Assembly: GCF_054482525.1 (NCBI RefSeq)
Contig: NZ_CM137006.1
DNA length: 64,000 nt
Direction: 5' to 3' (one strand)
Each line of letters starts with the position of its first letter. Positions within the stretch are counted from its first letter, which is position 1. Shown here one piece after another: positions 20,172 through 52,210 of this stretch. The translations under genes were made by a program, and so were the position numbers. Under the pieces are notes generated by a model, which made no database searches, was not told the DNA's origin, and saw only the letters and a list, made by a program, of their open reading frames with translations.

Positions 20172-20465
20172 TTATTCCTTAAAGTCATTGAAATCATCAT
20201 CCGTCATATCATTAAGATATTGTTCAGCGCGGCGTGTAATTTCCTCTAATCTTGCGGCACTCGGACGGAAGCGCGCCTTAACCAGTTTTTTCTCCTCTTG
20301 TTCAGCAAGCATGTCCATTAACGCTTCGAATGCGCTGGCACTTAAGAGATATCCTGCGGGGCGATTATTAGAAAGAACCGCAACTGGTTGATCAATAAAG
20401 TATTTAGCTGGGTTTTTACGTAACTCAGTGATATTGACCGATTTTTCAGCGAGAATTCGATGCAT
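20172..20465 (-). CDS. yafN: YafN antitoxin
   Basis: 97 aa translation matches YafN (MHRILAEKSVNITELRKNPAKYF...). Confidence 0.9.
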   Translation of the reverse strand: MHRILAEKSVNITELRKNPAKYFIDQPVAVLSNNRPAGYLLSASAFEALMDMLAEQEEKKLVKARFRPSAARLEEITRRAEQYLNDMTDDDFNDFKE

Positions 20466-27741: not shown

Positions 27742-30186
27742 ATGATGATTTTGAGTATTCTCGCTACGGTTGTCCTGCTCGGCGCGTTGTTCTATCACCG
27801 CGTGAGCTTATTTATCAGCAGTCTGATTTTGCTCGCCTGGACAGCCGCCCTCGGCGTTGCTGGTCTGTGGTCGGCGTGGGTACTGGTGCCTCTGGCCATT
27901 ATCCTCGTGCCATTTAACTTTGCGCCTATGCGTAAGTCGATGATTTCCGCGCCGGTATTTCGCGGTTTCCGTAAGGTAATGCCGCCGATGTCGCGCACTG
28001 AGAAAGAAGCAATCGACGCAGGCACCACATGGTGGGAAGGCGATTTGTTCCAGGGCAAGCCGGACTGGAAAAAGCTGCATAACTATCCGCAGCCGCGCCT
28101 GACCGCAGAAGAGCAAGCGTTTCTCGACGGCCCGGTAGAAGAAGCCTGCCGGATGGCGAATGATTTCCAGATTACTCATGAGCTGGCTGATTTGCCGCCG
28201 GAGTTGTGGGCGTACCTTAAAGAGCATCGTTTCTTCGCGATGATCATCAAAAAAGAGTACGGCGGGCTGGAGTTCTCGGCTTATGCCCAGTCTCGCGTGC
28301 TGCAAAAACTCTCCGGCGTGAGCGGGATCCTGGCGATTACCGTCGGCGTGCCAAACTCATTAGGCCCGGGTGAGCTACTGCAACATTACGGCACTGACGA
28401 GCAGAAAGATCACTATCTGCCGCGTCTGGCGCGTGGTCAGGAAATCCCTTGCTTTGCACTGACCAGCCCGGAAGCGGGTTCCGATGCGGGCGCGATTCCG
28501 GATACCGGGATTGTCTGCATGGGTGAATGGCAGGGCCAGCAGGTGCTGGGAATGCGTCTGACCTGGAACAAACGCTACATTACGCTGGCACCGATTGCGA
28601 CTGTGCTTGGCCTGGCATTTAAACTCTCCGACCCGGAAAAACTGCTGGGTGGCGCAGAAGATTTAGGTATTACCTGTGCGCTGATCCCGACTACCACGCC
28701 GGGCGTGGAAATTGGTCGTCGCCACTTCCCGCTGAACGTACCGTTCCAGAACGGACCGACGCGAGGTAAAGATGTGTTCGTGCCGATCGATTACATCATC
28801 GGCGGGCCGAAAATGGCCGGGCAAGGCTGGCGGATGCTGGTGGAGTGCCTCTCGGTAGGCCGCGGCATCACCCTGCCTTCCAACTCAACCGGCGGCGTGA
28901 AATCGGTAGCGCTGGCAACGGGTGCGTATGCGCACATTCGCCGTCAGTTCAAAATTTCTATTGGTAAGATGGAAGGGATTGAAGAGCCGCTGGCGCGTAT
29001 TGCCGGTAATGCCTATGTGATGGATGCTGCGGCCTCGCTGATTACCTACGGCATTATGCTCGGTGAAAAACCTGCCGTGCTGTCGGCTATCGTTAAGTAT
29101 CACTGTACCCACCGCGGGCAGCAGTCGATTATTGATGCGATGGATATCACTGGTGGCAAAGGCATTATGCTCGGGCAGAGCAACTTCCTGGCGCGTGCTT
29201 ATCAGGGCGCGCCGATTGCCATCACCGTTGAAGGGGCTAACATTCTGACCCGCAGCATGATGATCTTCGGACAAGGAGCGATTCGTTGCCATCCGTACGT
29301 GCTGGAAGAGATGGAAGCGGCGAAGAACAATGACGTCAACGCGTTCGATAAACTGCTGTTCAAACATATCGGTCACGTCGGTAGCAACAAAGTTCGCAGC
29401 TTCTGGCTGGGCCTGACGCGCGGTTTAACCAGCAGCACGCCAACCGGTGATGCCACTAAACGCTACTATCAACACCTGAACCGCCTGAGCGCCAACCTCG
29501 CCCTGCTTTCTGATGTCTCGATGGCTGTGCTGGGCGGCAGCCTGAAACGTCGCGAGCGTATCTCGGCACGTCTGGGGGATATTTTAAGCCAGCTTTACCT
29601 CGCCTCTGCCGTTCTGAAGCGTTATGACGACGAAGGCCGTAATGAAGCCGATCTGCCGCTGGTGCACTGGGGCGTACAGGATGCGCTGTATCAGGCAGAA
29701 CAGGCGATGGACGATTTACTGCAAAACTTCCCGAACCGCGTGGTTGCCGGGCTGCTGAATGTGGTGATCTTCCCGACCGGACGTCATTATCTGGCACCTT
29801 CTGACAAGCTGGATCATAAGGTGGCGAAGATTTTACAAGTGCCGAACGCCACCCGTTCACGTATTGGTCGCGGTCAGTACCTGACGCCGAGCGAGCATAA
29901 CCCGGTTGGTTTACTGGAAGAGGCGCTGGTGGATGTGATTGCCGCCGACCCAATTCATCAGCGGATCTGTAAAGAGCTGGGTAAAAACCTGCCGTTTACC
30001 CGTCTGGATGAACTGGCGCATAACGCGCTGGCGAAGGGGCTGATTGATAAAGATGAAGCCGCTATTCTTGTGAAAGCTGAAGAAAGCCGTCTGCGCAGTA
30101 TTAATGTTGATGACTTTGATCCGGAAGAGCTTGCGACGAAGCCGGTAAAGTTGCCGGAGAAAGTGCGAAAAGTTGAAGCCGCGTAA
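27742..30186 (+). CDS. fadE: acyl-CoA dehydrogenase FadE
   Basis: ORF 27664..30186; FadE-like sequence starts at [24 protein letters not shown] (814 aa). Confidence 0.95.
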
Positions 30187-30195
30187 TTGAATAAC

Positions 30196-30219
30196 GGAGC
30201 CGAAAGGCTCCGTTTCTTT
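30196..30219. terminator. rho-independent terminator after fadE (ggagccgaaaggctcc hairpin + gtttcttt)
   Basis: Hairpin and T-run read directly; lies between convergent fadE and ivy. Confidence 0.65.
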
Positions 30220-30228
30220 ATCCGCTAA

Positions 30229-30702
30229 TTATTTAAAATTAAAGCCATCCGGATGGTTTTCCAGGCTGCCGGTCAACGCCGCGAACAGCACCGTTTTACG
30301 ATCAATCGAAAGCGCATCGTTCACATTCAACCAGGTGAGTTTCTCTTGCGATGTTTTCTCATCAATGGTCGAGAACAGCCCCGTCATCTGATTAGATTTC
30401 TCGGACCACATCACAGCGATACGTTGCGAGCCACAGTCATGCGGTTTGCACGCGCTCATAACCTGATACGTCTCATCTCCCAACGTTACGGTTTGTGCGG
30501 GAGTATAAGTACCGCCTTTCATCACCCATGCAGGTAGCTTATGCCCTTGCACCATCTGATTAAACGCAGCTTTGGTGGTTTCGCCCTTTGCAAGGCTGCT
30601 AATGGTTAAATCATCCTGCGCCATTGCACTGGTGGCGATGACCAGTGCGGCGACTGTCGTTATTGCCTTAAACATCATTCCTCCCGAGCTTATCCTGCCC
30701 AT
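30229..30702 (-). CDS. ivy: inhibitor of vertebrate lysozyme Ivy
   Basis: 157 aa translation matches Ivy (…MMFKAITTVAALVIATSAMAQDDLT…CKPHDCG…). Confidence 0.9.
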   Translation of the reverse strand: MGRISSGGMMFKAITTVAALVIATSAMAQDDLTISSLAKGETTKAAFNQMVQGHKLPAWVMKGGTYTPAQTVTLGDETYQVMSACKPHDCGSQRIAVMWSEKSNQMTGLFSTIDEKTSQEKLTWLNVNDALSIDRKTVLFAALTGSLENHPDGFNFK

Positions 30703-30855
30703 GTTATTAACCTCCTAAAGCCTGGCGATAACACGATAATTTGCAAATCAGATATTTCCAATATCAGCATTTGTTATCAATTTATTCTGCGCTAAGGCAA
30801 CTGCCTGATAAGGTGTTAAAGTTATAAAACCCTTCGCATAAAGGAGTTGTACACC

Positions 30856-31626
30856 GTGCCTGGTTTGAAGATTACGCTTTTGCAGCAACCACTGGTGTGG
30901 ATGGATGGTCCTGCCAACCTGCGCCATTTTGATCGTCAACTGGAAGGTATTACCGGACGCGATGTGATCGTTCTACCGGAGATGTTTACCAGCGGCTTTG
31001 CCATGGAAGCGGCAGCTTCGTCGCTAGCACAAGATGACGTAGTGAACTGGATGACAGCCAAAGCGCAGCAGTGCAATGCGCTGATTGCAGGCAGTGTTGC
31101 ATTACAAACGGAGTCTGGTTCGGTTAACCGCTTTTTGCTGGTTGAGCCGGGCGGCACGGTACATTTTTATGATAAGCGTCATCTGTTCCGCATGGCAGAT
31201 GAGCATCTGCATTATAAAGCGGGCAATGAGCGAGTGATTGTGGAATGGCGCGGCTGGCGTATTTTACCGCTGGTGTGCTACGACTTACGTTTTCCGGTGT
31301 GGTCGCGCAATCTCAACGATTATGACCTCGCCATCTACGTTGCCAACTGGCCTGCCCCGCGCTCTCTGCACTGGCAGGCATTGCTGACGGCCCGTGCGAT
31401 TGAGAATCAGGCGTATGTGGCGGGATGTAATCGCGTCGGCAGCGATGGCAACGGCTGCCATTATCGCGGTGACAGCCGGGTGATTAATCCACAAGGTGAG
31501 ATTATCGCTACTGCCGACGCTCATCAGGCAACGCGCATTGATGCGGAACTGTCGATGATGGCGTTGCGGGAGTATAGAGAAAAGTTTCCGGCATGGCGGG
31601 ATGCGGATGAGTTTAGGTTGTGGTGA
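30856..31626 (+). CDS. yafV: C-N hydrolase (omega-amidase) YafV
   Basis: ORF 30847..31626; YafV-like sequence begins at the GTG at 30856 (PGLKITLLQQPLVWMDGPANL...). Confidence 0.9.
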   Translation: MPGLKITLLQQPLVWMDGPANLRHFDRQLEGITGRDVIVLPEMFTSGFAMEAAASSLAQDDVVNWMTAKAQQCNALIAGSVALQTESGSVNRFLLVEPGGTVHFYDKRHLFRMADEHLHYKAGNERVIVEWRGWRILPLVCYDLRFPVWSRNLNDYDLAIYVANWPAPRSLHWQALLTARAIENQAYVAGCNRVGSDGNGCHYRGDSRVINPQGEIIATADAHQATRIDAELSMMALREYREKFPAWRDADEFRLW

Positions 31627-31664
31627 GTGGGTGTTGTGTTTAGGGGCGGGGTAAGACTACGGGT

Positions 31665-31721
31665 CAGGGCAAGATTACGAAAGCCCGCTCCCCGCAAGGA
31701 CTGATGCCAGGTAGTTTCTGT
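31665..31721. repeat. ~57-bp direct repeat copy 1 (duplicate of the H-repeat element 3' end)
   Basis: cagggcaagattacgaaagcccgctccccgcaaggactgatgccaggtagtttctgt recurs with 2 mismatches at 31798..31855. Confidence 0.7.
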
Positions 31722-31797
31722 GAGTCTGTTTACCATTCTGTGTAAATGCCTTTCTCAGAAGTGACCGTCAAGGCGGTCACCGAATTCGATAATAAAG

Positions 31798-31855
31798 CCA
31801 GGGCAAGATTACGAAAGCCCGCTCCCTGCAAGGACTGACGCCAGGTAGTTTCTGT
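31798..31855. repeat. ~57-bp direct repeat copy 2, overlapping the 3' end of the H-repeat transposase gene
   Basis: Near-identical to 31665..31721; overlaps the stop codon region of the ORF at 31809..32945. Confidence 0.7.
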
Positions 31856-32945
31856 CCATGGCTGCTTTTCGCATCTTACGTCTTAACCCTGCCTTGAATA
31901 CATTATCATTCGTTAAAATATTAATAGCGATGTGCCGTATCCCTGAAAATAATTCTGCGGCGTTTCCTCTTCTTATTTTGCAGTCGTCTTCATTCATTAC
32001 CACGTCCAGACGCCAGTGCAGCTTATTCTCCACGTGCCAGTGATTTCGGATCGCTGTGGCGAACTTTTCTGCGGTTAAATCAGCAGAACTGATATAATAT
32101 CTGACCGTCATTTCTGGCTCTTTCTTTTGTTCTGCTATTATTGACCGAAAGGAGACTGCCACGCATAATTTCTTCAGTCCTTTCCATTCAAACGTGAAAT
32201 CAATAAGTTCATCAGGGACATCGCAAACAATATGAAGACGGATTTCTTCTCTGCCGTGACTCTTTTCACTTATTTCGTAACTGTCATGCTCTGGATTATT
32301 TAATTCTTTCAGCGGAAATTTTCCATCAAAGGCTTTATTTAGTCGTCCCTGATTTCCTTTTACAGCGAATAAATAATCACCGCCCTGTTTTTGCATCTTC
32401 TCTGCAATATCTTTCTGGCAACCCATCGCATCAGTTGTGATGATTTTTCCTTTAATATCCAGCATCTTAAGAAGTTCAGGGATAGCTGTGATCTCATTGG
32501 ATTTCTCATCCGTCCTGATCTGTCCGATAACCAGACTGTGCATTGTTGAGAACGCACTAATGACATGAATCGCTCCCTTGCGGCGACTCTTGTCATAAGA
32601 ATGCCGGAGTGTTTTTCCATCAATTGCGATGACGTCTTTATCATCTGAAGTATGGCAATCTCGCATCCAGTTAATAAAGCACTCGTGAAATTTTGCAGGA
32701 CTGATACAGGATACAACTCTGGCGATGGTATCGTGAACAGGAATACCATTTTCAAAATCACCGTATTGTTTTAAAAAATCGAGATGTGTTTCCCCAAAAT
32801 CCTCTATATCTTCCCAACCTTCCGCACCCGAAATAACGGCACAAATAGTCAACAGTAGAATATCCGATAATTTATTTTCCACTTTCCAGCCTTGTCTGTA
32901 ATCGGGGATAATAGAAATATGTTCCATCAATTTTTTAAGCTCCAT
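31809..32945 (-). CDS. H-repeat-associated protein (ISAs1-family transposase, YhhI/YdcC-like)
   Basis: 378 aa translation resembles E. coli H-repeat proteins that accompany Rhs elements ([32 protein letters not shown]...). Confidence 0.8.
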
Positions 32946-33225
32946 TTTGTTCTCCTTAATTATGTAAGGAGTATTTGATCATGTATAAGCAATAAAAAAC
33001 AGCTTTAGGTAATGAGGAATATCTCAATTTTTAAACATAAAATGCGAATTACTTAGTACAAAAAAGCAGCGTTACGTGATCTTTCCCTGGTCCCTGTCCC
33101 GGATTGTAGTACCGGTGCCAGTTGTAGTGCAGTTCGGATTCGTCGTCATACTGCTAGCCCGGATGGCGGAGCAGTTGCTCTAGTCACTCAGAATATTGTA
33201 ATAGTGATAGAGTGCAGTGCCGGTT

Positions 33226-33624
33226 TCAATATCCTAACGCTGGTCTTTTGCCTGTATTAACTGATTTAGCTGGTTTGCTACATATTAATGCCTTCAGATT
33301 TTCCCTTTCCTTGTCTGTGATACTGTCGCAAACCCTACTAGCCCATTCTACTTCACTCTTCTCCAGGCATTCTATTTTCTTATTGCTCATTGTTCTAATG
33401 TTTGGTGTTGCATCTCCATTTAATAACATCCATGTTTCATTTTTCTTCATAAAACATCTTCCATTATGTTCAAAGATATTAGGTGTGAATATATTATCAG
33501 AATCCCATGTTACGACTTGCTCGAGGGCTATATTATCTTGATAGTCCATGCCAGCATTATAATAATCACAAGATATAATTATCATGGAAATAATTATCAC
33601 TAATATATTCCCAAGCATTTCCAT
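33226..33624 (-). CDS. hypothetical small protein with N-terminal hydrophobic signal/lipobox-like segment; candidate Rhs immunity protein
   Basis: 132 aa AT-rich ORF immediately downstream of the Rhs gene; N-terminus ILVIIISMIIISC. Confidence 0.35.
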   Translation of the reverse strand: MEMLGNILVIIISMIIISCDYYNAGMDYQDNIALEQVVTWDSDNIFTPNIFEHNGRCFMKKNETWMLLNGDATPNIRTMSNKKIECLEKSEVEWASRVCDSITDKERENLKALICSKPAKSVNTGKRPALGY

Positions 33625-33873
33625 TTACTTTACCTCTTGAAATTCAAATGGGAATCCAGTGAAAGGACCTTTAGGCATAATATATCTTTGATATCCATAA
33701 AGCTCACCGAGCACTTGTAGGCTTATAGGCGCATTTGTATTCATAGAGGGGTTGTTAAACCCGCACGCCTCAAAAATCATGTTCGTTCGGCTAAAACAAT
33801 TATTTAAAACAGGAAGAGGCCCGAGGTTAATAGTTTTTAGTTTTTTATTAAGGTCTATTGCCTTATTCATCAT
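33625..33873 (-). CDS. hypothetical small protein downstream of Rhs (candidate immunity or orphan toxin-tip fragment)
   Basis: 82 aa AT-rich ORF in the same frame as the Rhs gene, beginning 11 codons after its stop. Confidence 0.3.
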   Translation of the reverse strand: MMNKAIDLNKKLKTINLGPLPVLNNCFSRTNMIFEACGFNNPSMNTNAPISLQVLGELYGYQRYIMPKGPFTGFPFEFQEVK

Positions 33874-33906
33874 ACATTGTTCTTCTTCATCTGTTGTATC
33901 TATTAT

Positions 33907-36900
33907 TCAAATCCAGGTATCTCTGCGGGGTTGCATCTTTTTAAAATAATCAGAGACAGAGGCTCCCATCTCATCCCCAGTTCCCGAACTCATTAATCCA
34001 TATCGATTTGCCGCCGCAGCATGCCCAAAAGGATTATCAGGAACGGGGCCGTTACCTATTATCATAGTACTAAGCCCTAATGGATCAACGTGTTGCACTG
34101 GATTCAGCGGATATTGGTACAGATTCCATCCCCCCTTCAGCCCAATCGGGTCCTGGATGATATACCGCCCCTGCAACGGATCGTAGTACCGGTGACGGTT
34201 ATAATACAGCCCCGACTCCTCATCGTGTTGCTGCCCTGGCAGACGGTACGGCTGGTGCAGGTGATGCGGGTTTTCCTCATTCAGCAGGTTGCCCCATTCA
34301 TCATACTCCCCGCTCCACGCCGTATTTCCGTCTTCGCTGATGAGCGCCAGCGGCAGGCCCCGGTGGTCGCAGTGGTAAAGATGAACTTTTCGCGCCGGTG
34401 TGTATTCCGGCTCCACCTGTTTTTCCAGTTGCTCCACCGTCAGCCCGCACTGCGCAAGCCACGCCCGGCTTTCACTGCTCACGCGGTCTGCCCGGATTTC
34501 CCCCTCCAGCCTGTCCAGCAGCCGCACCAGTTCAGCCGGGAACACCACGCCGTGTCCGTCCTCGCTCCCTTCCTGCTGGAGCTTCTCCGCCAGGCTCCGC
34601 CGCTGCGTTTTCTCCCGCTCGCCGTTGTCTGTTTCGATGCGGATGAGCGGTGTGAAGCTTCCCGGCTCGTATACCGTCTGGATACGTGTGCTGTCGGTCT
34701 GCACCGTCGTCAGGTGGTCGCCGTCCCAGCCGTACCACGTCACCTCCGGTTTACGCGACAGCGACATCCACCCCGTCAGGTCACGCTCCCGCCGCCATAC
34801 CCGTTTCGCCATTCGCCGTCCCAGCGGGTCGTAGAGGTAGCGGCTCTCGACCAGTGGCTCTCCATGCTGTATCCGCGTGTAGAACACCAGGCGGTGCTGG
34901 CTGTCGTAGTGGTGGGTCCGCTCGTCGTCCGTCCGTATCACACCCGCCGGGATGCGGTCCGTCTTCTCCGTCAGCCTGCCGTATTCATCGTGGCGGTAGA
35001 CATAGTGCGCATCCTCCGCGATGCGGTTATCCGGCCACACTGTGAGTGTACTGTCCGGGTGCAGCTCCGGGTCCGGCAGCCGGTTGCCCGCCGGGTCCGT
35101 GGCATACGGGATGCGGATGTCCAGGTCCGGTGCGAGGGTGCGCACGCTCTCCAGCCTGCCCGTGGCGCTGTAGCCGTATTCCCGCGTCTGTCGCGGGCCG
35201 CTGATGCGCACCAGGTCGCCGTTGTCATTCCACCCGTAGTCACGGTCATACACCAGGCTGTTCAGGTGCTGACTCTGTAACTGACCTGCGGGGGTGTATG
35301 TGCTGGTCAGTTCATATGCGGAATTACTGCCTGCCATGCTGCCGAAGCTGCGCACCGTCTCACGGTGCAGCCTGTCCCGCGTATACTCGACCAGCGGCGT
35401 CCCGCCCAGCTTCATTCCCGCCAGGTAACCGCTGCCATACGTCAGCCACTCCACCGGCGGCAGGCTGTCCGGCGTGACGCGGTTTGCCAGCCCCTGTTCG
35501 TTGTATGCCTGTTTCGTCTCATGCTGCCACAGCAGTTCCCCCGTCTCCGGGTTCTTCACCGTCTGGCGCTCACTGGTCAGACGGCCTTTATCGTCATAGC
35601 CGTAGTGGACCGCCACACGGTGGCCTTCACTGGTATGGCTGAGGGTGGTTAACCACCCGTGCTCATCCTACTGCCACTGCTCTGCCGGGTCGCCGTTCAC
35701 CGTCCGGTGCGTGATGCGGTCTGCTTCATCGTAGTACCACTGCGTGACCTGCCCCTCATCCTCGCTGCGGATGAGCTGCCCTGTGGCGCTGTACCGGTAA
35801 CGCTGTGTCCTGCCATCAAAGCCGCGCTGCTCCGTCAGGCGGTCCAGCACATCGTAGGTAAATTCACTCCGGCTGCCGTTCTCGTTGGTCAGCACGGTGA
35901 TGCGCCCGGCAGCGTCATACCCCATGCTGCGCGTCAGCCCGCCTTCCGTCACACTCACCGGACGCCCGCGTTTATCATATGCGATGGTGCTGCGTTTACC
36001 GTCCGGTGATATCGTTGCTGTCAGGTCGCCTGCGGCACTGTACTCATAACGGGTTTCACGCCCCTGCGCATCCTTCTGCCCTGTCAGCCTGCCGCGGCTG
36101 TCATAGAGACTATAAATACTGAGACCTTCCTCCCGGTGAACGGCGATTTGTTGACCGTACCGGTCATACTCATACCGCGTCATGTACCCCGAGCAGTCCG
36201 TGAAGGTCCGAAGCTGACCGTACCGGTTTCGCGTTATTCTCCGCGTTACCCCGATTCCGTCTTCCACCGCGCCGGGCAGGCTACTGCGGGGGGGAGTCAT
36301 AAAACCAGCGCGTAATGTTACCGTTGCGCGAGGTCTCTTCTGCCAGTCGGCCCTGACGGTCATATTTCCGGCTGCTGCGTAAACCATCCGGATATGTCAC
36401 TGAAGTCAGTTGCAACTGGCTGTTATAGCCATACCGCACCGTCCTGCCGTCCGGCAGTATCACTGAAGTCAGCTTTCCAGACGCCATATGCAGCCGGTAC
36501 ACCGTCCGCCGCCCCGCCGCATCCGTCTGCGCCTTCAGCCTCCCCGCCTCATCATACTCGCTGCGGGTGATGCTCCCGTCCGCATGCTCCTTCTTCACCA
36601 CCCGCTTCAGGCCACCTTCGCCTTCCGTGTACAGCACCTCCCGCCGGTTCAGGCTGTCCGTGATGGTCACACGGTCCTGCCCGTACTCAAAGCGGTAGTC
36701 AAGTCCCTCCGGGTTGACCTGCTCCGTCACCCGACCGGTATCATCATACCGGTAGCGGCTCTCCGGCCTCCCTGCATAATGGTGCGCCACCATCCGCCCG
36801 GCGTGCTCCGCATCATAAGTAAACCCGCGCACCTGCGTCCCGCTGCGGTCATACACCGCCCGCAGTTCTCCGCTGGCCGTGTACGTGTAGCGCGCCAGCG

Positions 36901-37855
36901 GCGCAGTCGGCTGTTCATCCGGGTATGCCGGGTCGTGTGTCAGCCACACCGCCTCCAGCCGGATACCGTTATCGGCACCGTATTCTGTACCGGCGGGCAG
37001 CGTGTCGGGGAAAGCTGAAGAAGAGGAAGCAGAACGGGGACCTGCAGGGGAAGATAAAGACGTGGCGCGCTGTTTACGGAAGGCTTCCGCCCGCTGCGCC
37101 TGCGTGGTCAGCGCCAGGTGAAAACGACGGCCCGCGCCGTCCGTCACCCTGGTGATTTCGCCAGCCAGTTCGCCTGCGGCCTCGCGGTGGAAAGCCAGTG
37201 AAAGCCCGAAACCGTCCACCACGCCCGTCAGCACCCGGTATGCAGGCGGCTCCGGCGGCAGCACTTCGTCCGCCTCCGGCACCCGCTCCGGCCAGCCGAG
37301 TATCCACCACGGCCCCTGAAGGCTGTTTGCCGCCAGGTACACATGCGGACTCAGGCGAACATCTTCCGGCAGCACCTGCCAGAGCGCGCTTAGCGGCTGC
37401 GAACTGTGCTGCTCCGCCACCCCGCCCCGCGCCAGCCAGAACGACTCACTGCGGCTGTAACTTATCTCGCCGGGAAACAGGGGTTCAAAGTGAATACTCC
37501 TGCCGCCACTGTCGTTGAGTATCAGGCCTTCATCGCGTATCTGTAAGCGGATATCGAAGGGGGCTTTCCAGCCGGGACCAAACACCCCCACCGGCGCGGG
37601 TGTCCTGGTTCGGTAGCTGCTGTAAGCGCGAGAAAGAATAAACGGCAGCGGGCCGGGCAGCGCAAGGTCCGTCTCGCCCGGCAGCACCTTCGCACCCAGT
37701 AGCGGGTTCACCGGGTTAGCATAGGTAATCCCTCCCGGACACACCGAGCAGGCCACTCCTGTCGGCGCACCTATCAGCCCCCCTGCTGAACCCTGCACAA
37801 TATCCAGTCCCTTGCGGGTCATGTCACCCTGCCGCGCCGCCGGTTTTCCGCTCAT
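33907..37855 (-). pseudogene. rhs: PAAR-Rhs family protein (T6SS effector type), disrupted by a +1 frameshift and an in-frame TAG
   Basis: Three consecutive ORFs (36281..37855, 35668..36387, 33907..35616) tile one Rhs protein: PAAR-like N-terminus, YD repeats, DPIGL core end. Frameshift at the G7 run 36288..36294; in-frame TAG at 35665..35667. Confidence 0.8.
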
Positions 37856-37931
37856 GGTTTATTCCTTTTCTTTTACCTTACATGTCCATACAAATAGTTA
37901 CCTATACTGTCTTTGAATATTGCCCTACCAT

Positions 37932-38381
37932 TTAAAGCCCACCTATTTCTTGCGACAGAAAAGGGATTTCTTTTTTAATCCAATCTATCATTTCATTTTT
38001 TTCAAAACATACGTTAATGCCATTCACACTTCCACATTCACCAAAACCATCAAAATAAATTTCACATTTATTATTTTTATTCGAAACAATGTCAACCCCC
38101 CATCTTATATCGTTATTCCCCTCCTTCCTGAAATACTTCATTTGCAATAAATCAATTATCTCACCAGCATAAAAATCGCTAACCCCATTCACCACCACTT
38201 TATGTTTGTATATTCTCTTGAGACCTTCCTTGCTAAGCGGGGTTAAGGTGGTAACATATGCTGGAAGATTAATTATTTCTATCGTTTTCACACTATCTAT
38301 TCCACACAATTCATTCACTCGCCCCATCCCCAATACCGAAGCAGAAAATAGAGACAATAAAACCATCAAATATTTCATCAT
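37932..38381 (-). CDS. putative secreted immunity protein for the upstream Rhs toxin
   Basis: 149 aa ORF 12 bp downstream of the Rhs C-terminal domain; signal peptide MMKYLMVLLSLFSASVLG; AT-rich. Confidence 0.45.
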   Translation of the reverse strand: MMKYLMVLLSLFSASVLGMGRVNELCGIDSVKTIEIINLPAYVTTLTPLSKEGLKRIYKHKVVVNGVSDFYAGEIIDLLQMKYFRKEGNNDIRWGVDIVSNKNNKCEIYFDGFGECGSVNGINVCFEKNEMIDWIKKEIPFLSQEIGGL

Positions 38382-38393
38382 AAAAAAATATCA

Positions 38394-41300
38394 CTATTCT
38401 GGCGTGCCATTTATTGTTGCCGTCTGCGTTGGTGTATTCACACGATAATACACTCCATTATATGCTGTTCTGGTACACTCACCTAAAGTTTTCGCCGCAT
38501 GCTGTTCAATTAAAGTGATAACTCTCGCCTCTTCTTTATTTTTATATTGTTCATCCGCACGTCTCACAAGCCCCATATAACCATCCTTATCAATAAGATA
38601 TAAGTGCGCATGAGCAAACTCATGCCCCAAACCTAATGCAGGTGATTGTGATTTCGATTTTAAATCAGTTGAACAAAATAAAGCCGCCTTACCATTCCAA
38701 TATATAGTCATTTTATCCGGGTCAAATCTAACGTCGGTTTCATCAATATACTCTATCTTTATGGTTTCTTCAGAGCTTGATAAAAAATCTATAGCTTCTT
38801 TCATTCGTGAATCTTGTTTTAAATACTCAACAGCCTGATTAAAATCACTTGGATCACCGTTAACATGGAATTTTAAACCCAAAGAATCTATAAACCGAAC
38901 AGGGTTTAATGGATATTTATACAGATTCCATTCACCTCTTAGCCCGATTGGATCCTGGGTGATATACCTTCCCTGTAGCGGGTCATAGTACCGGTTCCGG
39001 TTATAGTACAGTCCTGATTCCTCATCATGCTGCTGCCCCGGCAGACGGTATGGCTGGTGCAGGTGATGCGGGTTCTCCTCATTCAGCAGGTTGCCTCATT
39101 CATCATATTCCCCACGCCATTCCGTTGCTCCTTCGGTACTGATGAGCGCCAGCGGCAGCCCCCGGTGGTCACAGTGATAAAGATGAATTTTTCGCTCAGG
39201 TAAATAAACCGGCTCTATCTGTGCCGCCAGCCGCTCCACCGTCAGCCCGCACTGTGCCAGCCACTGGCGGCTTTCACTGCTCACGCGGTCTGCCCGGATT
39301 TCCCCCTCCAGCCTGTCCAGCATCCTCACAAGTTCTGCCGGGAACACCACACCGTGGCCGTCCTCGCTTCCTTCCTGCTGCAACTTCTCCGCCAGGCTCC
39401 GCCGCTGCGTTTTCTCCCGCTCGCCGTTGTCTGTTTCGATGCGGATGAGTGGTGTGAAGCTTCCCGGCTCGTATACCGTCTGGATCCGGCTCTGTTGTGT
39501 CTGTATCGTCGTCAGCCTGTCACCGTCCCAGCCGTACCACGTTACCTCCGGTTTACGCGACAGCGACATCCACCCCGTCAGGTCACGTACCCGCCGCCAC
39601 ACCCGTTTACCCGTCCGGCGGCCCAGCGGGTCGTAGAGGTAGCGGCTCTCCACCTGCGGCTCGCCATGCTGTATCCGCGTGTAGAACACCAGGCGGTGCT
39701 GGCTGTCGTAGTGGTGGGTCCGCTCGTCGTCCGTCCGTATCACACCCGCCGGGATGCGGTCCGTCTTCTCCGTCAGCCTGCCGTATTCATCGTGGCGGTA
39801 GACATAGTGCGCATCCTCCGCGATGCGGTTATCCGGCCACACTGTGAGTGTACTGTCCGGGTGCAGCTCCGGGTCCGGCAGCCGGTTGCCCGCCGGGTCC
39901 GTGGCATACGGGATGCGGATGTCCAGGTCCGGTGCGAGGGTGCGCACGCTCTCCAGCCTGCCCGTGGCGCTGTAGCCGTATTCCCGCGTCTGTCGCGGGC
40001 CGCTGATGCGCACCAGGTCGCCGTTGTCATTCCACCCGTAGTCACGGTCATACACCAGGCTGTTCAGGTGCTGACTCTGTAACTGACCTGCGGGGGTGTA
40101 TGTGCTGGTCAGTTCATATGCGGAATTACTGCCTGCCATGCTGCCGAAGCTGCGCACCGTCTCACGGTGCAGCCTGTCCCGCGTATACTCGACCAGCGGC
40201 GTCCCGCCCAGCTTCATTCCCGCCAGGTAACCGCTGCCATACGTCAGCCACTCCACCGGCGGCAGGCTGTCCGGCGTGACGCGGTTTGCCAGCCCCTGCT
40301 CGTTGTATGCGTGTTTCGTCTCATGCTGCCACAGCAGTTCCCCCGTCTCCGGGTTCTCCACCGTCTGGCGTTCGCCGGTCAGGCGGCCTTTATCGTCATA
40401 GCCATAGTGGACGGCAACACGGTGGCCTTCGCTCAGGTGGCTGATTTCTCTCAGCCAGCCGTGGCCATCATACTGCCACTGCTCTGCCGGTTCGCCGTTC
40501 ACCGTGCGGTGAGTGATACGGTCCGATTCATCGTAGTACCAGAGGATGACAAGCCCCTCATCTTCACTCTGCGTGAGTTTTCCGGTCAGGTCATAATGAT
40601 AACGTTGCGTCCGCCCGTCAAAGCCGCCCTGCTGTACCAGGCGGTCCAGCGCATCGTAGCTGAAGTCGCTGTGACTGCCGTTCTCGTTGGTCAGGCTGAT
40701 GACACGTCCTGCCGCGTCATACTCCATACTGCGCGTCAGCCCGCCCTGCGTGGTGCTGACCGCCTTTCCCCACGCATCGTACTGTGTCTCGCTCCGGTTG
40801 CCGTCCGGGGTGATAACGGCAGTCAGGTCGCCTGCGGCGTTGTATTCATACCGCGTTTCACGGCCCTGTGCGTCTTTCACCGAGGTTAACCGGCCACGGT
40901 TGTCATAGCGGCGGTAAAGGCTGATGCCTTCCTCGCGGTGGACCGCCGTCATCTGGCCGAAGCGGTCATACTCATAGCGGGTCTGGTAGCCCGAGCAGTC
41001 GGTGAACGCCAGCAACTGACCGTAGCGGCTCCAGGTCATCTGCCGGGTGCTGCCCGTCGCATCTGTTGTCGTGGCCGGTAATTCACTGTGCGGATTATCA
41101 TAAGCATACCGGATGACGTCCCCACTGCGCGATGTCTCCGATACCAGCCTGTCCCGCTCATCATACGCCCGGCGGCTCTCCAGCCCGTCCGGGTACACCA
41201 CCGCCGTCACCAGGTTCCCGTCGTTATAGTAAAATTTCGTCTCCCGCCCGTCCGGCGTGGTGATGTCCGTGATGTCGCCTGACACCACATTCAGACCGTA

Positions 41301-42641
41301 CTCTGTCCGCCGTCCCGCCGCGTCCGTCTGCGCCGTAAGCCGCCCCACCGGGTCATACCCGCTGCGCGTGACGCTGCCGTCCGCCAGTTCTTTTTTCACC
41401 ACCCGCTTCAGCCCGGCCCCGCCTTCTGTATGCAGCACCTCACGCCGGTTCAGGCTGTCCGTGACGGTGATGCGGTCCTGCTCATACTGGTAGCGGTAAC
41501 TCAGGCCTGCCGGGTTCAGCTGCTCCACCACCCGCCCCGCATCGTCGTAGCGGTAGCGCATCTCCGGCCTTCCCGCGTAACGGTGCGCCACCATCCGGCC
41601 CGGGTGCTGCGCGTCATACGTGAAAGCGCGCACCTGCGTATTGCTGCGGTCATATACCGCCAGCAGTTCACCGGCTTCCGTATACGTGTACCGCACCAGT
41701 GGCGCACCGGGCAGGCTCTCCGGGTATGCCGGGTCGTGCATCAGCCACACCGCCGAAAGACGGATGCCCCTGTCGGGGCCGTATTCGGTACCGGGCAGTG
41801 TGTCGGGGAACGCTGAGGCTGAGAGAGGGCGGGAACGGTCAGAAGAAGATAGCGAAGAGGTGCGGGCCTCTTCCGCACGCTGCGCCTGCGTGGTCAGCAC
41901 CAGACGGAACTCCCGCCCGGCACCGTCCGTCACGCCGGTGATTTCCCCGGCCAGGTCACCGGCGGCCTCACGCCGGTACGTCAGCGTCCGCCCGAAGCGG
42001 TCCGCCAGCCCGGTAAGCACCCGGTACGGCGGCAGCGGCGCTGGCAGTACGTCCTCAGCACCCGGCACCCGCTCTGACCACCCCAGTATCCACCACGGTC
42101 CCTGTGCGCTGTTGGTCGCCAGGTAAAGATGCGGGCTTAACCGGATATCCGGCGGCAGCGACGCCCACAGCCGTGCCAGCGTGTGGCCGTCCGGCTGCGC
42201 TGCCTTACCACCGCGAACCAGCCACATTGACTCGCTGCGGCTGTACACCGCCTCCCCCGGCAGCAGCGGCTCAAGGTGAATGCTCCGCCCGCCGTTGTCG
42301 TTGAGTATCAGTCCGTCATCACGTAGCTGTAAGCGGATATCAGAAGGCGCTTTCCAGCCGGGGCCAAAAATCCCCACCGGCGCAGGCGTCTTCGTCCGGT
42401 AGCTGCTGTAGGTGCGGGAGAGAATGAACGGCAGCGGGCCGGGCAGCGCAAGGTCCGTCTCGCCGGGCAGCACCTTCGCCCCCAGCAGCGGATTTACCGG
42501 GTTGCCCGAAGTCATCCCGCCCGGACACACCGAGCACGCCACGCCGGTGGGCGCGCCAATTCTTACACCTGCCGAACCCTGGACAATGGGACCGCCATAC
42601 TGAGTCATATCTCCCTGACGCGCCGCTGGTTTTCCGCTCAT
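38394..42641 (-). pseudogene. rhs: PAAR-Rhs family T6SS effector with HExxH (zinc-metallopeptidase-like) C-terminal domain; frame interrupted by in-frame TGA
   Basis: Main ORF 39096..42641 (1181 aa) ends at a TGA where the paralogue has TGG (Trp); the same frame continues through the DPIGL core end into a C-terminal domain containing [10 protein letters not shown]. Confidence 0.75.
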
Positions 42642-42707
42642 GATTCAATTCCTTCTTCTGTTTATTTTTAATGCTTGTTTGTTACTGAATACCGAACAGG
42701 TACGGGA

Positions 42708-44816
42708 TCAGTACTCTCTCATATCCGGCGTATCCTGCTTTTCATCAGGGGTCTTCGGTGGGGATTTCGAGGCTGCACAGTTCCAGTTAATCAACAGTGA
42801 GTCACCATTAACCTGCTCCTTACCCTGCAAATGAATTTTTGTGCCGTTGAGAAAAATTTGTCCGTCCTTAGTCAGCACCAGCCTTGCCTTACCACAGCAG
42901 AGTTCCAGATGCTCACCGCCGGAGTAAATCGCGGTCTGCCCGGTATCATCCTTTTTCGTTTTACCAACGGTGAAGGTAACGTTATTTCCGACTTTGACGT
43001 CATAACCCAGCCCGACCATCAACGATTTATGCAAACCGATCTGCGAGGACTGCATCAGGGCCACCGAGGTGTTCATAATGCCACCTACCGTCGTCTGATA
43101 CGCCACGCCCACAGTCAGCGCACGAACAAGTCCAATCGTTTCCACCTGAACAGAGCCCACTTTAATGATCTGGTTACTGCCCACCGTCTCTATCTGGTTA
43201 ACACCCACCGTCTGTATCTGATTGTTGGTAACCGCAATCATCTGATTGTTGCCAATGGTCTCAGCATGGTTGTTTATCACATCCGTGGTGCGGTTATTCA
43301 GCACCTCGGTGTTCATGTTCTTCTGCGCGTGGATGTAGACCTGTTCTTTCCCTGTCGCATCGTCAAACTTCAGTTCATTAAACCCGCTGCCCTTATAGGT
43401 TTTCGAACGAATGGTCATCTGCGTCTTTGTTCCCGGCAGGCTGCCGGGGGTGCGGTTTTCCTGGTGGTAGGTACGCCCCATAATAATCGGCTGGTCCGGA
43501 TCGCCGTTGAGGAAGTCCACAATGACTTCCTGACCCACACGCGGTATCGCCAGGTTGCCAAAGCCGGTGCCTGCCCACGCCTGTGCCACACGGATCCAGC
43601 ATGAACTGTCCTGGTTTGACGGGTTATAGCGGTCCCAGTTAAATTTCACCCGCACGCGGCCATGTTCATCACAGAAGATTTCTTCTCCTGCCGGTCCCGT
43701 CACGACGGCGCTCTGCGGGCCGTCCACCAGCGGTTTCAGCAACGGCTGTGGCCGCCATGTTCTGTCTGCCGGTATTACCGCAAAGTGGTTATTCAGCGTG
43801 GTACCTGAACCCCTGCGTCCCGGCACCGCCTGCGGCTGCTCGCCGTGCAGTTCACTTGCCACCACCTGCCATTCCCGGTTCAGGTTCGCCTGCGGATGCC
43901 CCGTCAGCGCAATTCGCCGTCCCGGCCATATCTCCGGCGAACGGCTTGTTCCGCGCGCCACTTCTGCGTTGTTTCGCCAGCCATCCATCTGCCAGCAGGC
44001 AAAGTTCTGCCCGTGGGCACCCTTGAAACGTCCGGGGTAGTCATACACTTCATACTGTGTGCGCTGGTAATCCTGGTGCTGGCCTTCCTGATCAAAACGC
44101 CCTGCCCAGCCGGGTCGTTTAAAGGTGTAGTCTTTGGTCACCACGGAAGATGGGCGGATTTGTGCGCTGTAGAGGAACTGGCTGATGCATAGGGTGCTCA
44201 CCTCGGTACGGGTGTTCGGATTCCAGGGGATCTCAAAGGACTCCGGCAGATAACGCACGGTGTCGCACAGGACCAGGCTCTGGTCGGTACTTTTTTGCGC
44301 GTGCTCCTCATAAAAGAAGATGCCTTCCTCCGCCGCCATCCGGCACAGGAAATCGTAATCGGTTTCGCCGTACTGGACACAAAACTCACGGGAAGGATGC
44401 GGCTCGCTGAACAGCGGACTCCACTCGGTCACCCCGTTTTCTTTCAGGATCGTCGCGAGTATGCTTTCGATGTCCTCATTCTGGAAGATACGGAAGTTCT
44501 GGCGCAGCCCTGTGCGCCACAGCGGTGGGCACACCTTCATGCTGTACAGCATCTGGTTTTTGTCGTTCTCCCCCAGTTCAAACCAGGTCACCACACCTTT
44601 CACCCGGCGCTGTACGTCATCGCCCTGCCATACCGTCAGGTAGGCCATTTTGTCCAGCACCTGCGCAAATTCAAGGGAGAGAAACTGCTGGCTGACCAGA
44701 GAGAGATCGAGGGAAAAGAGCGAAGAGAGTGACTGGTTCAGATGAAAGGAGACCACCGCAAACGCGTCCGGTGGCAGGCCGTCCACTTCCAGCGTGAAAC
44801 GTAATCCGGTTGACAT
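42708..44816 (-). CDS. vgrG: type VI secretion spike protein VgrG (TssI)
   Basis: 702 aa with VgrG-type gp27/gp5-like layout; immediately upstream of the Rhs gene. Confidence 0.9.
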   Translation of the reverse strand: MSTGLRFTLEVDGLPPDAFAVVSFHLNQSLSSLFSLDLSLVSQQFLSLEFAQVLDKMAYLTVWQGDDVQRRVKGVVTWFELGENDKNQMLYSMKVCPPLWRTGLRQNFRIFQNEDIESILATILKENGVTEWSPLFSEPHPSREFCVQYGETDYDFLCRMAAEEGIFFYEEHAQKSTDQSLVLCDTVRYLPESFEIPWNPNTRTEVSTLCISQFLYSAQIRPSSVVTKDYTFKRPGWAGRFDQEGQHQDYQRTQYEVYDYPGRFKGAHGQNFACWQMDGWRNNAEVARGTSRSPEIWPGRRIALTGHPQANLNREWQVVASELHGEQPQAVPGRRGSGTTLNNHFAVIPADRTWRPQPLLKPLVDGPQSAVVTGPAGEEIFCDEHGRVRVKFNWDRYNPSNQDSSCWIRVAQAWAGTGFGNLAIPRVGQEVIVDFLNGDPDQPIIMGRTYHQENRTPGSLPGTKTQMTIRSKTYKGSGFNELKFDDATGKEQVYIHAQKNMNTEVLNNRTTDVINNHAETIGNNQMIAVTNNQIQTVGVNQIETVGSNQIIKVGSVQVETIGLVRALTVGVAYQTTVGGIMNTSVALMQSSQIGLHKSLMVGLGYDVKVGNNVTFTVGKTKKDDTGQTAIYSGGEHLELCCGKARLVLTKDGQIFLNGTKIHLQGKEQVNGDSLLINWNCAASKSPPKTPDEKQDTPDMREY

Positions 44817-45025
44817 AGCAACCTCCGGGTTTAAGGAAAAACAGACAGTTCGCTGTTAAAGCGGCTGTAACAGTACAGTGTTACGCTTGCGTTCAGGCAC
44901 GCTACCGCCGAAGTTTCCGGCATCCGCCATCTCCCGTGAACGTAACCCCTTACTGACAACCTTTCTTTTTACGGCGTAATACAAAAACAGCATCCGGCCT
45001 AATAGCCGGATGCTGTTGGCTTAAC

Positions 45026-45544
45026 TTATGCTTCCAGCGGTGCGCGCCAGTCGTCGGCACCGGAGGTGCCAGACTTGACGTGTTCCCACTCTATTTTGCG
45101 GTAGGCCAGTGAAACTTCGAGCAACTGGGTGAACTCGCGTTTCGCCGGATCCTGGCAATGCGGCATATGCAGTTTCATATCGACAATCGTCGAATCGGTC
45201 AGGCGGGTGGTGAAATAATGCTCCTGTTTGCCTTCCACAGAGGTACGCCACCAGTGAAGTTCAGTGGTTGGCAGCATTTCGCCGGAGGCCAGTGCGTTGT
45301 ACATCAGCGGAACAGCTTTGTTCAGCGCCACGGTAAAAATGAACGGCTTGTGAGCACGCTGACCCGCAGGCTGGCCGGACTGAGGATCGGTCGGGACAGT
45401 AACGTTATGCAGGAATTCCTGCACCAGCATCTCGTCTTCGTGCCCCTGCACATAGATGTTGCCGACAGAATCAGCGGTAAATGCACCTGCAGTAATATTT
45501 CCCTGGGTCTGACCTGTGATGGAGATATAACACGGTGTTGGCAT
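45026..45544 (-). CDS. hcp: type VI secretion tube protein Hcp (TssD)
   Basis: 172 aa translation with typical Hcp sequence (MPTPCYISITGQTQGNITAGAFTADSVGNIYVQGHEDEMLVQEF...). Confidence 0.9.
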   Translation of the reverse strand: MPTPCYISITGQTQGNITAGAFTADSVGNIYVQGHEDEMLVQEFLHNVTVPTDPQSGQPAGQRAHKPFIFTVALNKAVPLMYNALASGEMLPTTELHWWRTSVEGKQEHYFTTRLTDSTIVDMKLHMPHCQDPAKREFTQLLEVSLAYRKIEWEHVKSGTSGADDWRAPLEA

Positions 45545-46240
45545 TTGTAAACTCCTTGTTAACGTGGTTAATTACTACTTACAATGACCTGCCGTTAATC
45601 CCAGACAGGCAGATGCAGCTCACTTCACGGAACCGCATCATTTTTCAGTATTTTTTACATACAAACCGAGCTAGAATTTACGGTTGTCGTAAAAACTATT
45701 TTTAAAATCATTAAATCTCTTATTCAGCAATAAGTTAATAATATATATCTGGATAACCATACCCAACTATTCAAAGTCCGTATTGCCTCCATAAAATGGC
45801 CAAAGCTGAATCATGAATAAATATTGTATTTATCCTTTCTGAATTATCATTTTGATAATTTTTGAGATATTCCTTAAAAATACCCACTTAATCAATCACA
45901 AAACAAATATATAAACAAGCAATCATCAGATTAGCTTATGTTTAATGAAATTATTGTATAATTCAATAAGTTACATAAAAGCTCTATATTTAAATTATTG
46001 CCATAATACACCTGACGCGAATTGCACAGGTTCACACAATCTATTTAACGCTTGCAGAATACCCCTCTTTACGATCGATAAAAAGTCCTTTTCTTATTTA
46101 TTTTGAAGCGTAGAATGCGGGGTGATGAAGGAGTGGTGATTTTATTTTCACCGCCATTATGGCGGCATTGCCGATATTTTTTTGCGGTACAAATATGCCG
46201 TGTTCATGGCCTGTACGAGATAACATGACGGATCACTTTT
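45545..46240. promoter_or_regulatory. AT-rich divergent hcp / tssB control region with a Fur-box-like motif near 45841-45860
   Basis: About 700 bp without convincing ORFs between divergent hcp and tssB; gaattatcattttgataatt resembles the Fur consensus. Confidence 0.35.
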
Positions 46241-46741
46241 ATGAGCAAAAAATTTGAAGGCAGCGTCGCGCCTCGCGAGCGTATAAATATATCCTATGTC
46301 CCGAAGACGGACGGCCAGACGGCTGAAGTAGAGCTTCCGCTTAACATGCTCGTTGTCGGCGATACCGGAAATACGCAGGAGACATCCCCACTGGATGAAC
46401 GTCAGGCAGTTTCCGTTAACAAGCACAATTTCGGTGCAGTAATGGCTGAAGCAGCCATTGGCCTCAATTTTACCGTCCCCGCCACGCTGAAGGGAAGCAC
46501 AACGGACGATGAACTGAATGTGGCGCTGAATATCAAGTCACTGGATGATTTTTCACCGGACAGCGTGGCCCGGCAGGTTCCGGAAGTGAATAAATTGCTG
46601 GAACTGCGTGAAGCACTGACTGCGCTGAAGGGGCCGATGGGCAACCTTCCGGCATTCCGTACCCAGCTCCAGGCATTGCTGGAAAATGAGGAGTCCCGCG
46701 AGCAGTTGCTTAAAGAAATCGGCCAGGTGAGTGGGAAATAA
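46241..46741 (+). CDS. tssB: T6SS contractile sheath small subunit TssB (VipA)
   Basis: 166 aa translation typical of TssB (MSKKFEGSVAPRERINISYVPKTDGQTAEVELPLNMLVVGD...). Confidence 0.9.
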   Translation: MSKKFEGSVAPRERINISYVPKTDGQTAEVELPLNMLVVGDTGNTQETSPLDERQAVSVNKHNFGAVMAEAAIGLNFTVPATLKGSTTDDELNVALNIKSLDDFSPDSVARQVPEVNKLLELREALTALKGPMGNLPAFRTQLQALLENEESREQLLKEIGQVSGK

Positions 46742-51846: not shown

Positions 51847-52210
51847 ATTATGATAATCACGGAGCAGAATATGCCGGAAGAGAAACTACAGACGCTTTCA
51901 TTGCAGGTCATTAACGGCAGTGAGCTGGAAAGCGGGCGGGCGGCGCGCTGTCTGTTCACACAGCAGGGAAATGTCGGCCATGGCCCCGAATGCCACTGGT
52001 CGGTACAGGATCGTCAGCAGAGCATTCCGGCTCAGGCTTTTACCGTTATCCTGCACGATGGCACATTTTGTCTGCGCCCGCAGACGGCACAACTGTGGCT
52101 GAACCAGGCAAAAGTCACAGCAACATCAGACCTGATACAGCTGCGCCAGGGCGATGAGATCCAGATAGGGCGTCTGATGGTGAGGGTTCATCTGAACCGG
52201 GGAGATATCC

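Follow-up and report, generated by a model that had tools for sequence, protein, structure and literature searches.

The second Rhs toxin gene of a tandem T6SS-linked element in E. coli is very probably a lineage-fixed pseudogene with three shared point lesions

The window analysed here is a 64-kb stretch of E. coli DNA in which a second full-length Rhs toxin gene, rhs2, follows the first within a tandem element (vgrG-rhs1-imm-rhs2-imm-ISAs1) that adjoins a T6SS cluster. Judging from its sequence, rhs2 is very probably a genuine pseudogene fixed in its lineage. Comparison with intact relatives shows three independent point lesions predicted to disable the gene, namely C6 to C7, TAT to TAG and TGG to TGA. 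An earlier note on this DNA had reported the first two and had left real pseudogenisation, a phase-variable switch and a sequencing artefact as possible causes; the first option is borne out by the same lesions in 32-33 genomes and by the pseudogene label assigned by PGAP. The broken allele itself is already known, as RefSeq annotates rhs2 as a pseudogene, and the third lesion is new here.

Results

Layout of the locus

On the minus strand, the locus runs in the order hcp, vgrG, rhs1, an immunity-like ORF, rhs2, a second immunity-like ORF, an rhs scrap and ISAs1 (Table 1). Linkage of rhs2 to the T6SS is evident from hcp, vgrG, tssB/C/E/F and tagH, all of which lie within the window; tagH is split by an IS186-like element. 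The literature consulted is not consistent in its naming of such E. coli clusters. The rhs scrap is the remnant of an older displaced tip. The only tRNA detected by ARAGORN, tRNA-Thr at 10542-10617, is far from rhs2. A search of 30000-46500 against Rfam at gathering thresholds gave no match, and a scan for promoters and terminators revealed nothing specific to rhs2.

Table 1 Coordinates of the features in and around rhs2
Feature	Position	Strand	Basis or remark
hcp	45026..45544	-	TIGR03344 match
vgrG	42708..44816	-	TIGR03361 match
rhs1, first Rhs gene after vgrG	38394..42641	-	tip with HExxH motif
149-aa ORF, candidate immunity gene for rhs1	37932..38381	-	signal-peptide-like N-terminus
rhs2 probable pseudogene, full ancestral extent	33625..37855	-	set by aligning the intact orthologous tips of L012 and L013
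lesion 1, G7 run (C7 on the coding strand), +1 frameshift	36288..36294	-	ancestral state G6
lesion 2, in-frame TAG for Tyr (TAT)	35668..35670	-	comparison with relatives
lesion 3, TGA for Trp (TGG) in the C-terminal toxin domain	33907..33909	-	orthologue comparison
severed tail of the rhs2 toxin domain	33625..33906	-	in frame with the rhs2 C-terminus
intact 132-aa ORF, candidate immunity gene for the rhs2 toxin	33226..33624	-	ATG abuts the toxin TAA
vestigial rhs core scrap QYDDESELHYNWHRYYNPGQG	33091..33153	-	72% nucleotide identity to the end of the rhs2 core
ISAs1-family transposase (H-repeat), closes the Rhs element	31809..32945	-	

The rhs2 gene and its protein

The gene measures 4231 nt, or 4230 nt once the extra base is removed. 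Its ATG (37855-37853) and the AAGGAA Shine-Dalgarno-like motif upstream are both intact. The three ORFs previously described as tiling 33907-37855 were recovered on the minus strand, at 36281..37855 (524 aa), 35668..36387 (239 aa) and 33907..35616 (569 aa); up to the ancestral end, three lesions leave four tiling ORFs. When repaired, the protein matches the NCBIfam model RHS_core (NF041261) from end to end over model positions 1-1261, with 2589 bits against a curated cut-off of 2000 bits. It also contains six stretches of YD repeats (TIGR01643) and the Rhs-associated core (TIGR03696) at residues 1184-1261, where the translation reads DPIGL...DPLGL. With one frameshift and two nonsense codons, rhs2 lacks the uninterrupted frame of a functional RHS member, and its predicted product would be at most a 524-aa N-terminal fragment without the toxin.

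The earlier note had called the protein PAAR-Rhs. A Pfam search of residues 1-259 identified DUF6531 at residues 47-123 (E = 6e-19) and returned no match to PAAR (PF05488), even at E <= 10, so that this label finds no support in Pfam; as a plain string of residues, P-A-A-R stands at positions 5-8. A sequence search of the PDB with rhs2 retrieved Rhs shells only, those of Tse5 and RhsA. The start of the shell fragment of Tse5 of P. aeruginosa (8cp6) aligns with residues 48-145 of rhs2 (PVNP(L/M)LG(A/S)K..., E = 5e-15). For both solved effectors, Tse5 and RhsA of P. protegens (7q97), the likeness is a sequence relationship confined to the N-terminal plug region, and it has no bearing on whether rhs2 is a pseudogene.

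Three lesions interrupt the frame

We determined population counts as exact and near matches in a set of 5,426 complete E. coli genomes, each assembled independently. The G7 run and its +1 frameshift were confirmed: exactly seven G stand on the plus strand (36288-36294), and orthologues have G6 and an open frame. Only one other G/C run in the window reaches a length of 7 or more. Removal of one base from C7 gives ...WFYDSPRSSLPGAVEDG..., a translation colinear with that of intact C6 relatives, as had been proposed. The 81-mer containing G7 matches exactly in 33 of the 5,426 genomes, and 56 of the 57 other sampled matches to it span 80 nt, one base shorter; intact-type sequence at the run occurs in about 876 genomes. 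The primary Rhs after vgrG in TUM1886 (WP_264831625.1) lies at the same island and shares this core segment, there with G6; over the 81 nt surrounding the run, nothing but a one-base gap separates it from the window (98.8%). The 33 carriers of G7 share one haplotype around the run, and no variation in tract length was seen among them, L001-L007 being read directly. One carrier, 23CRST032 (L002), has an additional single-base deletion 40 nt upstream of the run, which may be a sequencing error.

The TAG in place of a Tyr codon is real, with TAT in relatives, and it lies at 35668-35670, 3 nt away from the position first given (35665-35667). The identical TAG is present in 32 of the 5,426 genomes, and a sense codon occupies the same context in about 2,200. 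Strain PCN033 lacks the TAG and keeps the TGA of the third lesion. It differs from the rhs2 of the window at 27 sites, between gene positions 2188 and 2359, and at all of them it has the rhs1 sequence. This is a gene-conversion tract from rhs1, and the TAG is lost with it.

The third lesion had been missed, because position 33907 was taken as the end of rhs2, and PGAP likewise treats the TGA there as the natural stop. Intact orthologues have TGG (Trp) at this codon, so the TGA within the toxin domain arose by nonsense mutation; in the ancestral state, the ORF reads on in frame to 33625 and ends at TAA, 33627-33625. The TGA is shared by 33 of the 5,426 genomes, and 528 have the TGG version. The segment beyond the TGA is continuous with the toxin in the intact 1406-aa genes of L012 and L013, which identifies the RefSeq '82-aa hypothetical protein' WP_000981126.1 (ORF 33625-33873), by sequence, as the severed tail of the rhs2 toxin. 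The same toxin tip is found in WP_105267598.1 and WP_000014719.1 (2013C-4282 and ACN001); over the last ~450 nt, rhs2 and 2013C-4282 are 99-100% identical apart from TGG versus TGA. The intact orthologues are open frames of 1499 and 1406 aa, and rhs2 is a mosaic of both types, broken three times.

Toxin tips, candidate immunity genes and rhs1

The rhs2 tip extends about 147 aa beyond DPLGL, and the 132-aa ORF follows directly at its stop, an arrangement conserved beside intact genes. This candidate immunity ORF is identical in L001-L006 and one aa off the copy beside the intact toxin in L012. Searches against Pfam and NCBIfam returned no significant family for the reconstructed rhs2 tip, the rhs1 tip or the 149-aa candidate immunity ORF of rhs1, and no family match for the 132-aa ORF.

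The rhs1 gene, whose 3' core is almost identical to that of rhs2, had served the earlier note as an intact reference paralogue. It is itself broken by an in-frame TGA at 39096-39098, where all relatives have TGG (Trp); this TGA was found in no other database genome.

Carriers and spread of the broken allele

Comparison of the allele across related strains, as had been suggested, yielded the same G7, TAG and TGA in 32-33 genomes and intact states in hundreds, with C6, TAT and TGG at the three sites in the intact relatives L008-L013. The carriers come from many laboratories, hosts and countries, and in each carrier inspected RefSeq/PGAP labels rhs2 a pseudogene, 'frameshifted; internal stop'. 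These data show that the three lesions travel together as one haplotype in about 33 genomes, whether by inheritance or by recombination. The carriers are not one clone: the flanks of the window differ from those of strain 1190 by 1-4% per 500 nt, and the rhs2 block by about 0.08%. The low divergence of rhs2 across diverged backgrounds could mean that the allele spread horizontally not long ago, instead of decaying neutrally over a long time. In strain 19KM1831, the allele with G7 and TAG is found elsewhere on the chromosome (ansP...vgrG-rhs-rhs2-ydcC-pptA). We rejected an inversion between rhs loci as the source of this copy, because both flanks of the locus are in native order.

The second-position copy of strain N3 keeps G6 and TAT but is shifted out of frame at gene position 267, where G5 has become G4, and has a different stop. 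This copy was inactivated independently, which fits relaxed selection. Frameshifts of other strains in the same rhs family also fall within G/C runs.

Discussion

We infer from sequence that rhs2 is neither expressed nor functional. Being redundant with the vgrG-proximal rhs1, it would have drifted under relaxed selection, and the frameshift may have arisen by polymerase slippage on one of the many short G/C runs in the GC-rich rhs core. The retained immunity gene of rhs2 would still shield the cell from kin attacking with the intact toxin.

Long-read sequencing often produces homopolymer indels, and the deletion in 23CRST032 is possibly such a case, so one might suppose that the gene is in truth intact, with G6 and TAT. 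Yet G7, TAG and TGA reappear unchanged in 32-33 complete genomes that were produced independently, in many laboratories and from many hosts and countries. This excludes an assembly error, and we give this option a probability close to nil. A phase-variable switch, in which slippage between G6 (ON) and G7 (OFF) toggles toxin expression, would agree with a frameshift lying within a homopolymer and with G6 alleles of otherwise identical flanks in other strains. We nevertheless consider it highly improbable, because the tract is constant at G7 in all 33 carriers despite the 1-4% divergence of their flanks and because two stops lie downstream: a G6 revertant would still terminate at the TAG and the TGA, and PCN033, without the TAG, still has the TGA. 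The hundreds of G6 genomes are stable too, and where E. coli is proficient in mismatch repair, 7 nt make a short tract for slipped-strand switching. In poly-G/C contingency loci of Neisseria, Haemophilus and Campylobacter, as in rhs2, the length of a coding homopolymer sets the reading frame; unlike in those loci, rhs2 shows no tract polymorphism among carriers, its ON length is not open and its tract is short. The frame might also be restored at low level if ribosomes underwent programmed +1 frameshifting at UCC-CCC-C or if transcription slipped on C7. CCC-C is known as shift-prone, and a +1 slip on it yields exactly the ancestral ...DSPRSSL.... But the shift site is not conserved, orthologues having C6 in frame; no Shine-Dalgarno-like stimulator lies just upstream of the run, no stop or rare codon directly follows the slippery codon, and the restored frame meets two in-frame stops. 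Recoding thus deserves hardly any credence.

Two further proposals concern what a dead rhs2 might still do. The gene could be kept as a recombination partner that swaps core and tip segments with rhs1 and other rhs loci and so feeds toxin diversification, a role that is compatible with a pseudogene and that we regard as unlikely. The gene-conversion tract of PCN033, the near-identical 3' cores, the presence of the array at two chromosomal loci, and the intact rhs2 tip at the vgrG-rhs locus adjoining ydcC-pptA-yddH in more than 500 genomes all speak for it. However, repeats recombine irrespective of selection, no case was found of rhs2 sequence transferred into an expressed gene, and the rhs2 toxin tip is itself broken. 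With start codon and Shine-Dalgarno-like motif intact, a truncated product could be made. It is very unlikely that this 524-aa fragment, which comprises the N-terminus that binds the tip, the DUF6531 plug region and a portion of the shell, would be loaded on VgrG, capping it without a toxin and thereby permitting or modulating T6SS firing; if true, this would explain the near-unchanged haplotype in diverged strains and at two loci.

Decay of rhs2 as a pseudogene has precedents. E. coli clade I Rhs elements evolve by C-terminal displacement that leaves pseudogenes and relics, and rhs pseudogenes, relics and displaced copies decaying by frameshifts and premature stops are documented in Enterobacteriaceae (Jackson et al. 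2009, PMC2935791). Like clade I elements of the RhsA-H type, rhs2 has a full RHS_core, YD repeats and the Rhs-associated core, an AT-rich variable tip followed by a small ORF, a core scrap and ISAs1 downstream, and vgrG and hcp upstream; like displaced clade I copies, it has decayed by a frameshift and premature stops. Unlike 5'-truncated orphan tips, this second gene is complete, with a start codon and an N-terminus of its own, and unlike in the clade I description, the primary copy rhs1 is also interrupted in the window strain.

The result has little import beyond annotation: the disruptions are real and inherited, and the gene model is corrected to three lesions rather than two, with WP_000981126.1 as the toxin tail. 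Taken together, the rhs2 lesions, the rhs1 stop and the insertion in tagH suggest that this T6SS locus has lost its Rhs weapons and kept the immunity genes. Loss of weapons with retained defence is the expected pattern for polymorphic toxin systems.

rhs2 is interrupted by one frameshift and two in-frame stops

The second Rhs toxin gene (rhs2) is tiled by three minus-strand ORFs across 33907-37855. As the earlier note had claimed, its frame is shifted at a homopolymer, which reads exactly seven G on the plus strand and C7 on the coding strand (...TAT GAC TCC CCC CCG CAG TAG). The only other G/C run of at least seven in the 64-kb window (52412-52418) lies inside an insertion sequence in tagH. 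With one base removed, the gene indeed reads ...RWFYDSPRSSLPGAVEDG... again, in a single 1316-codon frame broken by just one stop; this is the TAG described earlier, which had been placed one codon off, at 35665-35667. With these corrections the original observation is confirmed.

Coordinates of the features, with genome counts for 81-mers centred on the rhs2 lesions
Feature	Coordinates	Strand	Length	Genomes matching 81-mer	Exact (lesion shared)	Other matches
rhs2 ORF	36281-37855	minus	524 aa			
rhs2 ORF	35668-36387	minus	239 aa			
rhs2 ORF	33907-35616	minus	569 aa			
rhs2 G7 run	36288-36294			909	33	~876
rhs2 TAG	35668-35670			2,455	32	2,198 at 95-99% identity
rhs2 TGA	33907-33909			561	33	528 at 95-99% identity
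ORF after rhs2	33226-33624		132 aa			
rhs core end scrap	33091-33153	minus				
rhs1 TGA	39096-39098	minus				
IS4-family (IS186-like) element	~52212-53549					
Transposase of this element	52382-53500	minus				
tagH parts	51850-52215 and 53547-54500		121 aa and 317 aa			

The repaired Rhs2 scores 2589 bits against RHS_core (NF041261; cut-off 2000; model positions 1-1261), and also carries YD repeats, an Rhs-associated core and, by Pfam, DUF6531 at residues 47-123. Pfam detected no PAAR domain in it, even at E <= 10, so nothing beyond the literal string KPAARQGD supports the "PAAR" label attached to the gene earlier.

A third lesion emerged at the variable C-terminal toxin region (tip). The tip and the two downstream ORFs (33226-34130) are present in 566 genomes, most of which have a single hypothetical protein after the Rhs gene, versus two ORFs in the window. 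Strains 2013C-4282 and ACN001 have an unbroken Rhs gene of 4221 nt (1406 aa) that extends directly to the 132-aa ORF, and the alignment reads ...RRDTWIWIIDTTDEEEQ... there versus ...RRDTWI*IIDTTDEEEQ... in the window. Since TGG has become TGA in the same frame, the ancestral gene spans 33625-37855, and the "82-aa hypothetical protein" at 33625-33873 (WP_000981126.1 in RefSeq) is the toxin domain's tail. Directly after the true TAA of rhs2 begins the 132-aa ORF, a candidate immunity gene; it is undamaged, and the copy adjoining an intact toxin differs from it by 1 aa. Neither the tip (~147 aa) nor this ORF matched any Pfam or NCBIfam family. Between the ORF and ISAs1 lies a degenerate rhs core end, QYDDESELHYNWHRYYNPGQG, left over from a tip displaced earlier.

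The lesions are shared by diverse strains, are not artefactual and are very unlikely to be programmed

When 33600-38000 was compared by megablast with 5,426 complete E. coli genomes, at least 31 records among the matches listed aligned over the full length at 99.4% identity or higher. We then used the 81-mers as queries, for which any single difference lowers identity below 99%. The G7, TAG and TGA recur exactly in 33, 32 and 33 genomes, from dogs, chickens, humans, a marsupial, seawater and lake water in Europe, Asia and the Americas, which excludes an assembly artefact, one of the origins suggested earlier. Of 57 evenly sampled non-exact matches at the G run, 56 span 80 nt, that is, one base fewer. 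Among loci fetched from other strains and read directly, L001-L007 have G7 and L008-L011 have G6, while TAG is found in L001-L004, L006 and L007, and TAT in L005 and L008-L011. PGAP labels the gene "frameshifted; internal stop" in all carriers examined except PCN033 (L005), where the label is just "frameshifted".

Carriers do not form one clone: between the window and strain 1190, yafL-fadE-yafV differ by 1-4% per 500 nt, and the 6.5-kb rhs2 block differs at ~5 positions. A phase-variable switch at the G run, the second origin proposed earlier, is very unlikely, because the tract is constant and the stops persist: despite these diverged flanks no carrier has a tract length other than G7, a G6 revertant would still stop at the TAG and TGA, and PCN033, which lacks the TAG, still has the TGA. 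Recoding at the C7 run would bring back the ancestral peptide through a +1 slip on CCC-C; yet in orthologues the run is an in-frame C6, the sequence at the run shows no stimulatory context, and both stops would remain, making this very unlikely too. In 23CRST032 (L002), a single-base deletion at gene position 1522 (window 36334; GAGACC to GAG-CC), 40 nt upstream of the C7 run, would restore the frame after 13 altered codons, leaving TAG and TGA in place; the deletion may reflect either compensation or an error in sequencing. The remaining option raised earlier, real pseudogenisation, is supported by the sharing of the lesions among 32-33 genomes and by the PGAP pseudogene label.

Damage in neighbouring genes

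The vgrG-proximal gene rhs1 (38394-42641, minus strand), previously taken as an intact paralogue, itself contains an in-frame TGA in place of Trp TGG (...GEYDEWGN...). This stop falls shortly ahead of the DPxGL region, so that this region and the tip with its HExxH motif are cut off. None of the 5,426 complete genomes shares it; the 38 closest, among the matches listed, are each one position apart from the window over the 81-mer, and all four loci read directly (L001, L006, L007, L008) have TGG. This TGA is therefore either private to the strain or an error in the window sequence. In strain 1190 (L001) a deletion of ~600 nt (~20320-20350, corresponding to window 41940-42515) removes the rhs1 5' end, so that its rhs1 is damaged differently from that of the window's strain; PGAP labels it "missing N-terminus", a label that it also gives to rhs1 in the relatives L002-L004. 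Separately, a CACTAC repeat (...THHY(HY)DSQ...) differs between alleles by 6 nt in frame, at 35040-35045 (rhs2 ~2942) and ~39707 in rhs1; both window genes have the short form and several relatives the long form.

RefSeq gives the order in strain 1190 as fadE, ivy, yafV, ISAs1 transposase, two "hypothetical proteins", an "RHS element core protein" pseudogene, a hypothetical protein, a second RHS core protein, vgrG, hcp, tssB, tssC, tssE and tssF. VgrG and Hcp were confirmed in the window by NCBIfam. The T6SS FHA gene tagH is split by the IS186-like element, with a target duplication of ~GGAGATATCC; exactly this junction recurs in six other genomes, and a seventh matches it at 96.9%. Loss of the T6SS through deletion and IS insertion is documented in E. 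coli lineages (PMC10711316).

Decay and movement of the rhs array

In strain N3 the gene at this second position still has the ancestral G6 and TAT and is inactivated in a different way: a G5 run at gene position 267 has shrunk to G4, and there is a further stop. At least two independent losses of the second copy have thus occurred, as relaxed selection predicts. Frameshifts in the primary copies of relatives likewise sit in short runs of G (G4 to G5 in WP3-W18-ESBL-08, G6 to G5 in strain 222), some of which could be sequencing errors. In TUM1886 the primary Rhs after vgrG is intact (1499 aa), with G6 in the common core segment, and rhs2 of the window combines, as a mosaic, this core type with a tip found intact beside ydcC-pptA-yddH in other strains.

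All 27 differences between PCN033 and the window's rhs2 fall at gene positions 2188-2359 (window ~35497-35668), and each is identical to rhs1, TAT replacing the TAG; the segment is a tract acquired by gene conversion from the adjacent paralogue. In 19KM1831 (L014, 10874-23870) an rhs1-imm-rhs2 array with the same G7 and TAG allele and a different rhs2 tip occupies a second chromosomal locus, ansP...vgrG-rhs-imm-rhs2-imm-ydcC-pptA-yddH. Its flanks are in native order, and therefore the array, lesions included, has moved between rhs loci.

We consider it highly probable that rhs2, a displaced and redundant copy of an Rhs toxin gene, decayed through replication slippage and two nonsense mutations, that it is inherited and recombined as a single haplotype, and that its immunity gene has been retained. 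On the sequence evidence, rhs2 is predicted to be silent and non-functional. These findings agree with rhs evolution as published (PMC2935791), which features copies in tandem, displacement of C-termini, and common pseudogenes and relics degraded by frameshifts and premature stops. Public records already carry the pseudogene annotation, and such a feature is ordinary at rhs loci.
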